Source: Candidatus Saccharimonadota bacterium (GTDB lineage: Bacteria; Bacteroidota; Bacteroidia; Cytophagales; Amoebophilaceae). Taken from it: a stretch of 32,000 nucleotides of DNA. The notes beneath the pieces are model-generated. The model worked only from the letters and a program-made list of their open reading frames with translations, had not been told where the DNA came from and ran no database searches. Below are positions 22,982 through 26,578 of this stretch, in pieces. How positions within the stretch are numbered: the stretch's first letter is position 1; each line of letters opens with the position of its first letter. The DNA lies in the NCBI RefSeq assembly GCF_965196625.1, contig NZ_OZ239769.1, positions 900,001 through 932,000 of the forward strand, written 5' to 3'. A program made the translations under genes and the position numbers.

Positions 22982-25900
22982 CTATTTTTTTGTCACAATA
23001 CCCTTTTCTTTATTTGTATTTTCAAAAACCTCTAGTGCCTTCTTGGCGGCTTGTTCTAAAGCTATTCCTATCTCTTTTCCTAAGTATGTATTGGCTATTT
23101 GCACATCTATAGCCAATGTTTCTTGCGCCATATGTTGAACCTCTGTTAGATGGATATAGCCTGCTGCATGACGTAGGTCATAAAGCCGTTCAGCCAATTT
23201 TATAAATAAAACGGAAAGTTGTACGTGACCTTCTTTAATAGCTTCCTTCAATCGATTTTTTACATAAAGCAAAGAAGGATGATCTAAGTCTTGACGTTTA
23301 TCTATACCTACAACATTTAGCACAAAGGCATAAACACCTAAATTATAATGCTTCTCGATATAAGAAATCGGCAAACAAGTACGACGAACCAATTCATAGA
23401 GCAAAGCAGCATAAATCACTTTAGGAGAGTGAAACACCCATTCTACCACTAATGCAGCAATCCCTACTGATCGAACATAAAACAACTGTCCAGAGGCATG
23501 CCGTTTAAATCCAAAATGTTTCCGTAATAATAAAATCAAATTAGAAATTATTTTCATATCAATAGGATCCTCTTGATGAGAAAATTTGCAGATATAGTCA
23601 TGGAATTGCATTAATACCACCATAGAATCAGCTTGCTCTTTAGGAGTGATAGTGGCTTCTGAGGTTAAAGCATCTATAGGCAATTTAATAGACATCTTAC
23701 TGAGAATCTCAGTAACATCATTAGGCAGTACCAGTAGCATAGTGGATTGCTTTTGGTCACTAGAATCTTCCAAATAACCGTAGTGGGCCTGAATAACAAT
23801 GGATATAGTTTGCTGTTGAAGATCTATAGATGGTGATGATCCTTTTTTCCATCGAAACCCCATATCATCTATCGTGTCATTATAAAGATCTTTTACCTTA
23901 GGAAGGGATTCATAAGCAACAGTAGAATCACTTACTACCAGAGCGGTAGCTTGAAAATCTATAAAAGATGGATAGTTATTATCAATAGGTTCTGCTTTTT
24001 TAAATTGCAAAGCAGTAGCATGCAGTTGTATGCGAATAACCGGTGTACTAGATCTATCTAAATTACCATTAACACGTATAACGGCCTGAACTAACAAGTA
24101 AACGACTTGATTAACATCACACACAATATAGTCAGGTAGTGCTCCATTAGGATTATCTATTTCCTCTATAAGAATCTTAGGTGGATCAACCGCCTCTTGA
24201 GATAACGTCACTTCCACCTTACGTATCAGCTTATCTAAAGTAATCTTAGTAGGTTGAATGAGCGCATTATATTTAGCCCTTTCCCTTCTATTAAAATAGG
24301 CTATCCAATCATAAAATTTATTGATAATACTTTGCAAGTCTTGCTTATAAAGAGGCATTTTGCTATCTAAAAATGAGATAGATTCTTCAACTTTACGAAC
24401 TACTTGGTTTAAAATAAATCCATGTCCTTTATGGCTATAGGAAGTAACACCATTAGATGGAACTAGAGCTGCATCATATAGAGCTGACTTTAATCTTCGT
24501 ATTTCTTTAATCTTCTCTTTATCATTTAGGTAGGTAATTCGATTAGAATAACGATTATTTTTAGCCTTAATGAAAACAAGAATACCAAAAATAAGTAATC
24601 CTAATACAAGACAAAACAGTAGAAGAAATATAACAGTTAATGGTGATAGAACTAGAGTCTTGGTATAATAAACAGAGCTAAGGCATATAGCGATCAATAT
24701 AGTAATTATTAAAAAGCTTATACCTAGATATAAAGGGAATATCATCAAGGTTATAGACAAATTGGATAAAGACAAGCCTAAGGTTAAGAAAAGATTGGTT
24801 CCACGCCACCAGTGCCAAAGTACATTGATAGGAAGACAAAAAGATAAACCAATTACACAAAGTAGCCCCATTATCCAACCTGTAATATATGGTCTCTTTT
24901 CCTGGAAAAACGTACTATATCCTAAAAAATAAGCCCCTACTAAAAGTTGAAACATAAACCATGGTACATGATCCACAATAGAGGTTGTAAAATAAATCAA
25001 TAAATTAGTGATGAGCACATAAAGTCCTACATATCTTAGCGTAGTATGACTTGGTACCAGTTTGGCCAATGTAAGCTTTCTATTAGTCAAACAGTTTTTA
25101 ATTGATTCTTTGCGTGCTGCCTTCTTACGTTGATTTTCTTGTTGCATTTGTTTAAACTTATCATCTGGTTTAACCCACCCAGAACCATCTGGTTGTTTGA
25201 GTAGATAGTGGGCAACCACCATGGCTAAGATATTGATCAACATGCAAGCAAAAGCACCATTTATACCTATTAAAGGTTTAAGCCACTTATTCCAAGATAA
25301 AATAGCTAATGCACCTATAGTCATACCTATTAAAGCAGTCTTGGAACTACCTCTAAACCCAAAAACAGCTAAAATAAATGGGGCAACTATTATAACATCC
25401 AAATCTAAGGTCCAAAACATTAATTTCAACAGATCCTTACAGTAAAAAGATACTATCATAGCTAATAATCCAATCACCAGTGTAACTATTCTAGCCAACC
25501 TAAGTTGATAAGCATAAGGAGATTTATTGGCTCCTAGTATACTTTCTACTATATCATGACTAACCATAATAGAACATGAATTCAATTCAGAATCAGCTGT
25601 AGACATAGCCATTGCTAGTAAGCTGATAGCAACAAATCCTTTAAAAACAGATGGAATATCATACATTATATAGGTCCAAATATCTTTTAGCATCAACTCT
25701 GGTGCCCTGATAAAAACAAATAGACCAATTAGAATTATAAAAATTCGTATAACAAAACTGAAAATTGCGGCATATGAAAAAACCTTTTTGGCTTGGATTG
25801 GACCAGAAGCCATATAAATCCTTTGGATCATAGAGGGTTCTATGCAGGGCGTTAAACAACATAGAATTATAGTACCCATATTTATTAGTTTAATATCAAA

Positions 25901-26578
25901 ATGGAATAAGCTATTAAACTGAAACTTAGATTTGGTCTGTAGAAGGGGTATAATTTCTACAACTGGTTTTCCTACTTTCACAAACATAAACCAAGCCAAA
26001 AGTGGAATAATCACAGCAAATGTTATAAACTGCAATATATCAGTAAAGGTAACAGCACGAATACCTCCAAAAGTAGAATAGAATATAAGTAGTAAGGCAG
26101 AAATGGCAGTAATTATACGGGGATCAACGAAGTCCACACATATAGAAACAGCTTCAGTCATTACGATGATTTGACTAGTAATTGCAATAATGGATTTACA
26201 AATACTCAATAAAGCGGTAATAATCCTTGGGTACTTACCATATACACTACCAATCGTCTCGGCCATAGAGAGATGTTTCATAAATGGGCTCATACGTAGT
26301 GCTAGCCAACTCATGGTCCAAAGGCGAAATATAATCAAAAGGTATATAACGATCCAGTAAAGACCAAGGTTATGTACTTGTTGTACGTTACGCAACAGTC
26401 CTGCTCCGCCAAAATTAGTAGCCAATACAGTAGCTACTAAGGTAGCCGTAGAGAATTTTTTATTCCCCACTGCATATTCTAGAAAAGTGGATTCTTTTCT
26501 AGAAAAGTAAATACCGACTACAAAGGTCAACAACAAAAAAAAACCTACTGTTACAAAGGGAATATTAAAGCATATCAT
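22982..26578 (-). CDS. 1198-aa multidomain membrane protein: SSS (sodium:solute symporter) domain, second TM block, degenerate HisKA/HATPase-like module and degenerate RelA/SpoT-type HD domain
   Basis: aa 1-460 are SSS-like (FLEYAVGNKKFS, STFGGIRAVTFTDILQ, 12-13 TM helices). aa 510-670 form a further hydrophobic block. aa 700-955 have histidine-kinase-like order (SYSHKGHGF..; DYIVCDVNQVVYLLVQAVIRV; ALVVSDS; MLLVLP) but lack the N, G1 and G2 box residues. aa 1020-1185 align to the SpoT HD domain with HD replaced by YE (AALLYELVRRT, 23378..23404) and LADRxHN replaced by LAERLYD. Confidence 0.75.
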   Translation of the reverse strand: MICFNIPFVTVGFFLLLTFVVGIYFSRKESTFLEYAVGNKKFSTATLVATVLATNFGGAGLLRNVQQVHNLGLYWIVIYLLIIFRLWTMSWLALRMSPFMKHLSMAETIGSVYGKYPRIITALLSICKSIIAITSQIIVMTEAVSICVDFVDPRIITAISALLLIFYSTFGGIRAVTFTDILQFITFAVIIPLLAWFMFVKVGKPVVEIIPLLQTKSKFQFNSLFHFDIKLINMGTIILCCLTPCIEPSMIQRIYMASGPIQAKKVFSYAAIFSFVIRIFIILIGLFVFIRAPELMLKDIWTYIMYDIPSVFKGFVAISLLAMAMSTADSELNSCSIMVSHDIVESILGANKSPYAYQLRLARIVTLVIGLLAMIVSFYCKDLLKLMFWTLDLDVIIVAPFILAVFGFRGSSKTALIGMTIGALAILSWNKWLKPLIGINGAFACMLINILAMVVAHYLLKQPDGSGWVKPDDKFKQMQQENQRKKAARKESIKNCLTNRKLTLAKLVPSHTTLRYVGLYVLITNLLIYFTTSIVDHVPWFMFQLLVGAYFLGYSTFFQEKRPYITGWIMGLLCVIGLSFCLPINVLWHWWRGTNLFLTLGLSLSNLSITLMIFPLYLGISFLIITILIAICLSSVYYTKTLVLSPLTVIFLLLFCLVLGLLIFGILVFIKAKNNRYSNRITYLNDKEKIKEIRRLKSALYDAALVPSNGVTSYSHKGHGFILNQVVRKVEESISFLDSKMPLYKQDLQSIINKFYDWIAYFNRRERAKYNALIQPTKITLDKLIRKVEVTLSQEAVDPPKILIEEIDNPNGALPDYIVCDVNQVVYLLVQAVIRVNGNLDRSSTPVIRIQLHATALQFKKAEPIDNNYPSFIDFQATALVVSDSTVAYESLPKVKDLYNDTIDDMGFRWKKGSSPSIDLQQQTISIVIQAHYGYLEDSSDQKQSTMLLVLPNDVTEILSKMSIKLPIDALTSEATITPKEQADSMVVLMQFHDYICKFSHQEDPIDMKIISNLILLLRKHFGFKRHASGQLFYVRSVGIAALVVEWVFHSPKVIYAALLYELVRRTCLPISYIEKHYNLGVYAFVLNVVGIDKRQDLDHPSLLYVKNRLKEAIKEGHVQLSVLFIKLAERLYDLRHAAGYIHLTEVQHMAQETLAIDVQIANTYLGKEIGIALEQAAKKALEVFENTNKEKGIVTKK

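Follow-up and report, generated by a model that had tools for sequence, protein, structure and literature searches.

A Cardinium-type sodium-solute symporter fused to a kinase-like module and a Rel/SpoT-type HD domain, both without their catalytic residues

In the sensor kinases CbrA and CrbS, a sodium-solute symporter (SSS) domain is joined to an active kinase, with a STAC and/or PAS domain between them. We analyzed a gene in a 32,000-nucleotide stretch of DNA from a bacterium placed in the Amoebophilaceae (contig NZ_OZ239769.1, positions 900,001 to 932,000; hereafter, the window), the product of which resembles CbrA/CrbS, and three further SSS-kinases discussed below (P0228, P0232, and P0233), in having an N-terminal SSS domain fused to a DHp-CA region. 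P0228, P0232, and P0233 possess the H-box His, the N, G1, and G2 boxes, and HisKA and HATPase_c matches over the Pfam thresholds, whereas in the window protein all of these are missing and a C-terminal Rel/SpoT-type HD_4 domain is added. Pfam reported no STAC, PAS, or receiver domain in the window protein, and a block of six transmembrane (TM) helices occupies the interval between the SSS and kinase-like parts. The kinase-like part is a DHp-CA fold without H, N, G1, and G2 boxes, and the HD_4 domain, as judged by alignment, is without all four Mn2+ ligands and the catalytic Glu-Asp and Asn residues.

Other described proteins share portions of this layout. Aasi_0939 of Ca. Amoebophilus asiaticus 5a2 (WP_012473068.1) has the same succession of SSS domain, six TM helices, kinase-like module, and HD_4 domain; its kinase-like module likewise lacks G1 and G2 and carries an AHYG motif, and both proteins belong to multi-copy sets in reduced genomes of intracellular Bacteroidota. 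However, Aasi_0939 keeps the canonical HD motif, whereas the window protein has R[AS]..Y[DEG]..R[HYR]..ERxYD. RetS of Pseudomonas aeruginosa and DivL of Caulobacter crescentus use a DHp-CA fold for signaling without normal autophosphorylation, and structures of both (6dk7, 6dk8, 7n0e, and 4q20) are among the top Foldseek matches of the modeled kinase-like region. RetS and DivL nevertheless retain much of the ATP-binding signature and act via GacS and DivK, respectively, whereas the N, G1, and G2 boxes are missing here. For the C-terminal domain, Escherichia coli RelA offers a precedent, as it keeps the HD fold of the RelA/SpoT homologs (RSHs) as a non-catalytic regulatory or structural domain without the hydrolase motif (5iqr and 5kpv are among the fold matches). 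The pseudo-HD domain of RelA adjoins an active synthetase in a ribosome-binding protein, while that of the window protein is C-terminal on a 19-TM protein with no SYNTH domain, and its substitutions form a distinct, strongly conserved set. The small alarmone hydrolases (SAHs; Mesh1, PaSAH, RelH, and the rickSpo proteins of Rickettsiales) also have the HD_4 fold, but these enzymes are soluble, consist of one domain, and keep the Mn site intact, in contrast to the window HD domain, which makes up the last ~190 aa of a 1,198-aa membrane protein and has no such site.

The family to which the window protein belongs has already been noticed by others, but is under-described and partly mis-annotated. 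In Cardinium hertigii cEper1, 12 "putative sodium-solute symporters" are all expressed, with two ranking in the top 22 by expression (Mann et al. 2017, PMC5698495), and the 19 putative symporters of A. asiaticus are life-cycle regulated, their substrates being reported as unknown (Selberherr et al. 2022, PMC8831229). In PMC6232779, the homologs are given as "spoT ... /sodium glucose cotransporter", and one family paper annotates members as an active bifunctional enzyme ("bifunctional spoT"). A. asiaticus, for which 15 RSHs were counted, was scored as "Rel[HS] + rickSpo[H] expansion", and the 14 extra ones were classed as HD-only SAHs (Atkinson et al. 2011, PMC3153485). The window protein falls outside that SAH definition (HD only). 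Because copy numbers fit, the 14 "rickSpo" proteins of A. asiaticus are probably SSS fusions; a look-up of Aasi_0939 gave ACE06300.1 and WP_012473068.1, and no YP number to match with the 14 accessions of Atkinson et al. A text search of PMC5698495, PMC8831229, PMC6232779, and PMC3153485 found no mention of the kinase-like module, the second TM block, or the loss of hydrolase residues. What appears to be new is the recognition of a double pseudo-enzyme fusion, its descent from genuine SSS-kinases, and the single-origin, strongly conserved, and partly convergent remodeling of the SpoT pocket in Cardinium.

The window gene had first been singled out from its sequence alone, and the original prediction was right about the coordinates of the open reading frame (ORF), which lies on the minus strand, about a complete SSS domain in the first ~460 residues, and about a second TM block behind it (Table 1). 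The Pfam SSF profile (PF00474) matches aa 35-422 end to end (profile positions 1-406, E 5e-12; score 45.9 bits, gathering score 22.8). TIGR00813 also matches (E 1.2e-18), yet below the NCBIfam cut-off, and the domain aligns with the structure of the sialic-acid symporter SiaT (5nv9, E 1.8e-8). Hydropathy shows 13 peaks in aa 1-460 followed by a K/R-rich linker, which places the C-terminus of the SSS domain in the predicted cytoplasm. S342, S343, S345, and S346 of SiaT, which we take to be Na2/Na3-site residues, correspond to S326, T327, D329, and S330 of the window protein. S326 and T327 thus stand at the Na2-site Ser/Thr pair of the TM8-equivalent helix. In 88 close and 15 distant homologs, conservation of the columns of this M-S326-T327-A-D329-S330 motif is at least 93% (S326 in 87/88 and 15/15, T327 in 82/88 and 14/15). 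With a full SSF match, 13 helices, and a nearly invariant Na+-site motif, the transporter core looks functional.

The second TM block consists of six hydrophobic helices at approximately aa 517-668, bringing the predicted total to 19 (13 in the SSS domain and six here). Pfam reports no match for it, conservation is lower here than anywhere else in the protein (35% identity among paralogs), and alignment shows that the block is also present in P0228, P0232, and P0233. Since K/R-rich segments flank the block (14 K/R in aa 461-516 and 10 in aa 668-700), all parts downstream of it are predicted to be cytoplasmic. Upstream of the start codon, a Bacteroidota-type promoter motif (TTTG...TAnnTTTG) was not found. 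Full-length homologs share 45-64% identity over 97-100% of the length, and all of the best ones are from Cardinium (arthropod and nematode endosymbionts); none of the homologs found was identical to the window protein, and in a scan of genome contigs no locus among the matches listed was identical, the best being 65% (full length) and 70% (partial).

Table 1. Features of the window discussed in the text, with positions in nucleotides of the window.
Feature	Position	Strand	Residues	Basis or remark
SSS / second TM block / pseudo-kinase / pseudo-HD protein (whole ORF)	22982-26578	-	1198 aa + stop	ATG start
SSS domain, 13 predicted TM helices	25199-26578	-	aa 1-460	Pfam SSF, TIGR00813, SiaT 5nv9 alignment, hydropathy
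Basic cytoplasmic linker, 14 K/R	25031-25198	-	aa 461-516	Residue count; no Pfam match
Second membrane block, 6 predicted TM helices	24575-25030	-	aa 517-668	Hydropathy
DHp-like helical region (helices ~673-704, 719-735, 742-769)	24254-24574	-	aa 669-775	Profile, model, alignment
CA-like (HATPase_c-fold) alpha/beta sandwich	23684-24253	-	aa 776-965	Model, Foldseek, alignment
Conserved linker with long helix, ..TPKEQADSMxxLMxFHDY..	23543-23683	-	aa 966-1012	Alignment, model
Rel/SpoT-type HD_4 domain, remodeled pocket	22985-23542	-	aa 1013-1198	Pfam, profile, model, alignment
Pocket residues of the HD_4 domain			H1027, R1036, Y1061, E1062, R1065, R1066, K1127, E1130, R1131, Y1133, D1134, Y1141	
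Contractile-injection-system tape-measure protein	320-4678	-	1452 aa	PF19268, E 7e-69
Small ORF beside tape-measure gene	4704-5258	-		
Small ORF beside tape-measure gene	5316-5900	-		
Transposase_mut (IS256-type)	9607-10821	-	404 aa	100% nucleotide identity to second copy
Decayed second family copy	11572-12422	-		Six-frame hmmsearch with the family hidden Markov model (HMM), E 8e-19 and 7e-10; tblastn
ORF near ClpB	13158-15218	-	686 aa	
ORF near ClpB	15888-17462	-	524 aa	
ORF near ClpB	20455-21660	+	401 aa	
Alpha/beta-hydrolase	21782-22804	+		Weak matches to eukaryote-type Palm_thioest, DUF676, PGAP1
NUDIX hydrolase	27199-27885	+		PF00293, E 2e-18; lipoprotein-like N-terminus (...LSSC)
PP2C/SpoIIE-like phosphatase protein	28099-29157	+		Lipobox-like N-terminus (LVASC)
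Transposase_mut (IS256-type)	29625-30839	+	404 aa	100% nucleotide identity to first copy
ORF with PDDEXK_9 nuclease domain (DUF1703-type) at C-terminus	31042-31950	-		

No HisKA or HATPase_c match was returned by Pfam for the window protein, even at E ≤10. Nonetheless, when 36 family members were used to make a profile covering aa 672-1012, it matched histidine kinases in the PDB (ThkA 3a0r, E 8e-9; ZraS, 1.4e-3; AdeS, 0.047). An AlphaFold2 model of the region (predicted local distance difference test, pLDDT, 78.7) comprises a helical hairpin followed by an alpha/beta sandwich, and its best 50 Foldseek matches in the PDB are all DHp-CA kinase regions (E 9e-10 to 3e-7), with the atypical kinases RetS and DivL among the best. 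The ThkA profile match and these fold matches support the assignment of aa 700-955 to a kinase-like module.

We placed the catalytic boxes by alignment with P0228, P0232, and P0233, which are closer to the family than the PDB kinases. They came from a search with the intact-HD family member P0108, to which they show 34-39% identity across 63-74% of the P0108 sequence; all three share the front end of SSS domain and second TM block, and their HisKA and HATPase_c domains reach significance in Pfam. Their H-box (N-[IV]-[SNE]-H-E) falls at about V709, in a variable loop (aa 705-718, model pLDDT <50) with no conserved His, and the HMMER register against kinase 7z8n agrees in putting the H-box position in this loop. 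The N-box (D-N-L-x-x-N-[AS]) corresponds to V-Q831-A-V-I-R835, with Q831 at the first Asn and R835 at the position of the Mg-binding Asn; G1 (D-E-G-I-G-I-P) corresponds to D884-S-T-V...S-L-P, and G2 (G-G-R-G-x-G-L) to P916-S-I-D-L-Q-Q. No conserved His, Asn, or Gly occurs in the H, N, G1, or G2 box columns of any family member. The original prediction had described the N, G1, and G2 boxes as missing; its G1 and G2 placements were correct and neither register contains an Asn, but its N-box register was one helical turn off. An A-H932-Y-G934 motif (aa 931-934), located where real kinases have the helix that follows G2, does not vary within the family.

Y701 was considered as a DivL-like substitute phospho-acceptor and rejected, as both the 7z8n register and the genuine-kinase alignment place the H-box 8-10 residues further on. 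This residue is kept in 85/88 Cardinium-type sequences (those carrying the HD motif set of the window protein) and aligns with the H/Y of an "H-E-E-R" string in the intact-HD group.

The C-terminal domain is recognizable as an alarmone-hydrolase domain by several measures. The Pfam HD_4 (PF13328) match covers aa 1021-1163 and scores 31.8 bits (gathering score, 27.2), and a profile made from degenerate-motif sequences only finds Rel/RelA/SpoT structures in the PDB (E 4.9e-10 and weaker). The model of the domain is confident (pLDDT 91.5; predicted template modeling score, pTM, 0.88), and its ~40 best PDB matches are all alarmone-hydrolase domains, including Rel of Thermus thermophilus, Bacillus subtilis, and Staphylococcus aureus, RelSeq, SpoT, RelA, Mesh1, and several SAHs (TM-score about 0.64-0.74, target-normalized 0.65-0.79). 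Matches by Pfam, profile, and model thus bear out an HD_4 domain in the region for which one had been proposed (aa 1020-1185).

In RelSeq and Mesh1, H53, H77, D78, and D144 (RelSeq numbering, as used below) are the Mn ligands, and the E81-D82 pair and N148 are catalytic. Alignment to RelSeq 1vj7 assigns the four ligand positions to R1036, Y1061, E1062, and E1130, the E81-D82 pair to R1065-R1066, and N148 to D1134. Further changes are P54 to S, H147 to Y1133, R44 to H1027, and a downstream His to Y1141. These are exactly the substitutions read earlier from the sequence (HP to RS, HD to YE, ED to RR, and DRxHN to ERLYD), and a check of alignment and model indicated that the catalytic residues are truly absent rather than offset.

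The replacement residues are themselves strongly conserved. Among 88 Cardinium-type sequences that are otherwise 31-64% identical, Y1061, E1130, and D1134 are kept in all 88, R1036 in 87, Y1133 in 86, and R1065 in 82. The HD-like domain is the most conserved of the protein; pairs of sequences average 65% identity in it, and 22% of its columns reach ≥95% conservation, compared with 55% and 15% for the SSS domain and identities of 35-46% for the remaining parts. Given replacement residues that are 93-100% conserved within the most conserved domain, the remodeled pocket is, on this pattern of conservation, under strong purifying selection.

This conservation bears directly on a simpler explanation, namely that the protein is a plain nutrient transporter in which only the SSS domain matters and the kinase-like and HD-like domains are decaying remnants of a sensor. 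Both enzyme modules are without catalytic residues, in published work the family figures simply as symporters (PMC5698495, PMC8831229), and truncated copies and fragments are common (including in PMC12039267), all of which would fit such decay. However, the HD-like domain is more conserved than the SSS domain, its replacement residues are nearly invariant in the 88 paralogs and orthologs, and nearly all intact copies retain the full length (~1,150-1,200 aa) in otherwise shrinking genomes. Neutral decay is not expected to yield such conservation, retained length, and a confidently modeled HD domain, and we regard a vestigial tail as very unlikely.

The architecture had been put forward as one without known counterparts, but it is no isolated oddity, as the window protein belongs to a multi-copy family of several hundred database proteins. 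There are ~3-19 copies per Cardinium or Amoebophilus genome; for example, cHgTN10 (1.19 Mb) has at least 14 copies of ~3.5 kb, and in some Cardinium genomes of ~1 Mb, the family accounts for an estimated 4% of the sequence. The kinase-like module is narrow in sequence terms: a profile of it run against 1.84 billion representative proteins gave 310 clusters at E ≤1e-3, which are essentially the family and its fragments, and no new architecture with this module was found among them. Among the matches listed in the genome-contig scan, the full-length architecture occurred only in Cardinium, Amoebophilaceae, and Cytophagales-type Bacteroidota, and SSS-only relatives mainly in other intracellular lineages.

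We aligned 102 full-length homologs and took a motif census over 233 collected sequences. The canonical HP..HD..ED..DRxHN pattern is present in 84/233, including Aasi_0939 and many proteins from metagenome-assembled genomes (MAGs) of Bacteroidota, Amoebophilaceae, and Cytophagales. R[AS]..Y[DEG]..R[HYR]..ERxYD was found in ~90/233, comprising all Cardinium proteins and a few other relatives, and a minority of sequences have other, partly degenerate HD patterns. Overall identity between the canonical-HD and Cardinium-type groups is 23-28%. Both states can occur side by side, as on one 108,572-bp Bacteroidota MAG contig that encodes canonical-HD and degenerate-HD paralogs together (P0134, P0135, and P0136). 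Several full-length members with a partly degenerate HD domain (HLHE[RT]GDRHD in P0209 and P0210) are also found in CP136537.1 (loci L013 and L019), a complete 1.45-Mb MAG labeled "Roseivirga sp.", the size and gene content of which suggest an Amoebophilaceae-like symbiont rather than a free-living Roseivirga.

A neighbor-joining tree was built from 923 aligned columns outside the HD domain, with the genuine kinases as root. Cardinium-type proteins group together in a single clade (bootstrap 100/100), and on this tree the Cardinium-type HD motif set is of a single origin. The clade is sister to the intact-HD proteins of Amoebophilaceae, a placement to which the 100/100 value of the clade itself does not extend. 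At least five other lineages within the intact-HD radiation lost canonical residues independently. One of them (P0135, P0137, P0139, and P0141) is 45-48% identical to the canonical P0108, with P0135 and P0139 only 23-24% identical to the window protein, and it converged on H53 to R, P54 to A, and N148 to D.

G1 and G2 are missing from the kinase-like module of every family member, and since this holds even for those with an intact HD domain, kinase function was lost before the HD domain changed. HD-less members with the A-H-Y-G module exist in Rickettsiales endosymbionts (P0226, P0227, and P0230). From sequence comparison, the order we infer runs from a genuine SSS-6TM-kinase to a pseudo-kinase, then to a pseudo-kinase with an added active SpoT-type hydrolase, and finally to the Cardinium protein with pseudo-kinase and pseudo-hydrolase. 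The family offers a natural series of these states, with hydrolase activity lost repeatedly and partly convergently.

As to function, we lean with moderate confidence towards a protein that imports a host-derived solute by Na+ coupling, or acts as a transceptor for it, and that has a non-catalytic regulatory tail; the HD pocket of this tail would bind a ligand or partner without hydrolysis. The importer/transceptor reading draws on the intact Na+ site, the numerous paralogs, the high expression of the family reported in the literature, and the dependence of the bacterium on import for most metabolites. The SSS domain would carry out Na+-coupled uptake of the solute or act as a transceptor, the DHp-like helices may serve in dimerization and relay conformational change from the membrane, and the CA-like domain could be a structural adaptor. 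In the HD pocket, two Arg and three Tyr take the place of the Mn-binding His residues and catalytic acids, and this Arg/Tyr set, with the retained K1127 and R1131, makes for a predicted basic, hydrogen-bonding pocket suited to a phosphorylated ligand. Such a pocket might hold a ppGpp-like or other nucleotide, or a partner, without hydrolyzing it, and the tail would couple transport to the metabolic state of the cell or report solute supply to it. In relatives with an intact HD domain, this scaffold would work as a (p)ppGpp hydrolase in the membrane, gated by solute. The original prediction had suggested that the organism may have lost the stringent response; Amoebophilus, the sister genus, keeps a genuine Rel[HS] (PMC3153485), and in A. 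asiaticus this Rel would supply the substrate.

Several points weigh against this reading. The SSS domain itself could be a sensor only, and the signal could travel either from the solute to the tail or from the tail to the transport function. Within the pocket, position 1062 (the D78 equivalent) varies between E, D, and G, with Gly in 15/88, and position 1066 varies between H, Y, and R. Moreover, the set of Tyr, Glu, Glu/Asp, and Asp could bind a different, harder metal and retain some catalysis. Taken further, the last point would make the protein an active enzyme of altered chemistry, in which the pocket uses another metal (Fe3+, Mg2+, or Ca2+) or none to hydrolyze an alarmone or phosphoester, that is, a solute-gated membrane hydrolase with a new substrate. 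In its favor, hard metal ions go well with Tyr and carboxylate ligands, positions 1130 and 1134 have kept or gained a carboxylate, no polar residues of the HD domain are more conserved than those of the pocket, and the convergent H53 to R and N148 to D changes in a second lineage suggest a defined alternative state. Yet all four Mn ligands and the water-activating Glu-Asp pair have changed, with E81 and D82 now basic or aromatic, and position 1062 tolerates Gly. E. coli RelA, an RSH in which the HD motif is substituted, shows no hydrolase activity. We consider altered chemistry improbable.

The original prediction itself had proposed signaling by conformation or protein binding, an idea compatible with the data. 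Under that proposal, SSS occupancy would alter a DHp-like dimer that titrates or recruits a partner, as RetS does with GacS and DivL with DivK~P, and the HD-like domain would be a docking surface. The presence of RetS and DivL among the best DHp-CA fold matches speaks for it, as does descent from genuine sensor kinases with the same membrane part. On the other hand, the conserved residues cluster in the former active-site pocket, and 12-19 paralogs each with a partner would be hard to fit in a regulator-poor genome of ~1 Mb. Gene neighborhoods point to no conserved partner either, as none of the window's neighbors (the NUDIX, PP2C-like, lipase-like, 401-aa ORF, and ClpB genes) is found again within 3 kb of a family member at any of 80 other loci. 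A transceptor acting purely by protein contact seems rather unlikely to us, though less so than an enzyme of altered chemistry.

The regulatory-tail reading can be stated in a more specific form, which we offer as a tentative and, in all its parts, fairly unlikely proposal. R1036 and R1065 would stand in for Mn2+ and the catalytic Glu, and three His-to-Tyr changes would complete a metal-free receptor pocket for (p)ppGpp or another nucleotide that gates host-metabolite transport, the Amoebophilus-type ancestors having been solute-gated hydrolases. If this were true, nutrient supply at the membrane would feed the stringent response by an unrecognized route, with 12-19 solute-specific channels in intracellular Bacteroidota. 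For Cardinium, the "bifunctional spoT" annotation would lead metabolic reconstructions to credit the organism with (p)ppGpp turnover, which it probably does not have. For a genuine Rel or SYNTH protein in Cardinium, the literature gave only mis-annotated family members (PMC6232779), no genome search having been made.

The gene content of the window (G+C 33-43%), with a contractile-injection-system tape-measure protein, ClpB, IS256-type transposases, and a PDDEXK_9 protein, points to an endosymbiont of the Amoebophilaceae, which we take to be a Cardinium. The window also contains a decayed second copy of the family, in which SSS pieces (HMM positions 127-286) abut HD pieces (1014-1119) in different frames, indicating a large internal deletion and frameshifts. 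This state is in line with the "SSS/HD fragments" reported in Cardinium cTPut (PMC12039267). The decayed copy adjoins one of two IS256-type transposase genes, which are inverted relative to each other and enclose ~19 kb containing the SSS/pseudo-kinase/pseudo-HD gene; as the two copies are identical in nucleotide sequence, recent activity of this insertion sequence is suggested.

The NUDIX hydrolase gene is divergent from the SSS/pseudo-kinase/pseudo-HD gene across a 620-bp A+T-rich spacer. A functional link through nucleotide or alarmone processing was considered and rejected, since NUDIX genes are not near family members at the 80 other loci, and the adjacency is probably coincidental. The PP2C/SpoIIE-like protein may be a secreted or membrane-anchored effector, and the alpha/beta-hydrolase is a candidate host-interaction protein. 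A ClpB gene is also present, and the ORFs of 686, 524, and 401 aa, which had no Pfam match at E ≤1e-3, are lineage-specific proteins. At one end of the window, the tape-measure protein presumably belongs to the phage-derived AFP-like/T6SS-iv secretion system that has been described in Cardinium and Amoebophilus. At the other end, the ORF with a PDDEXK_9 domain belongs to a family that is expanded, fragment-prone, and a candidate miniature inverted-repeat transposable element (MITE) in Cardinium cTPut (PMC12039267).

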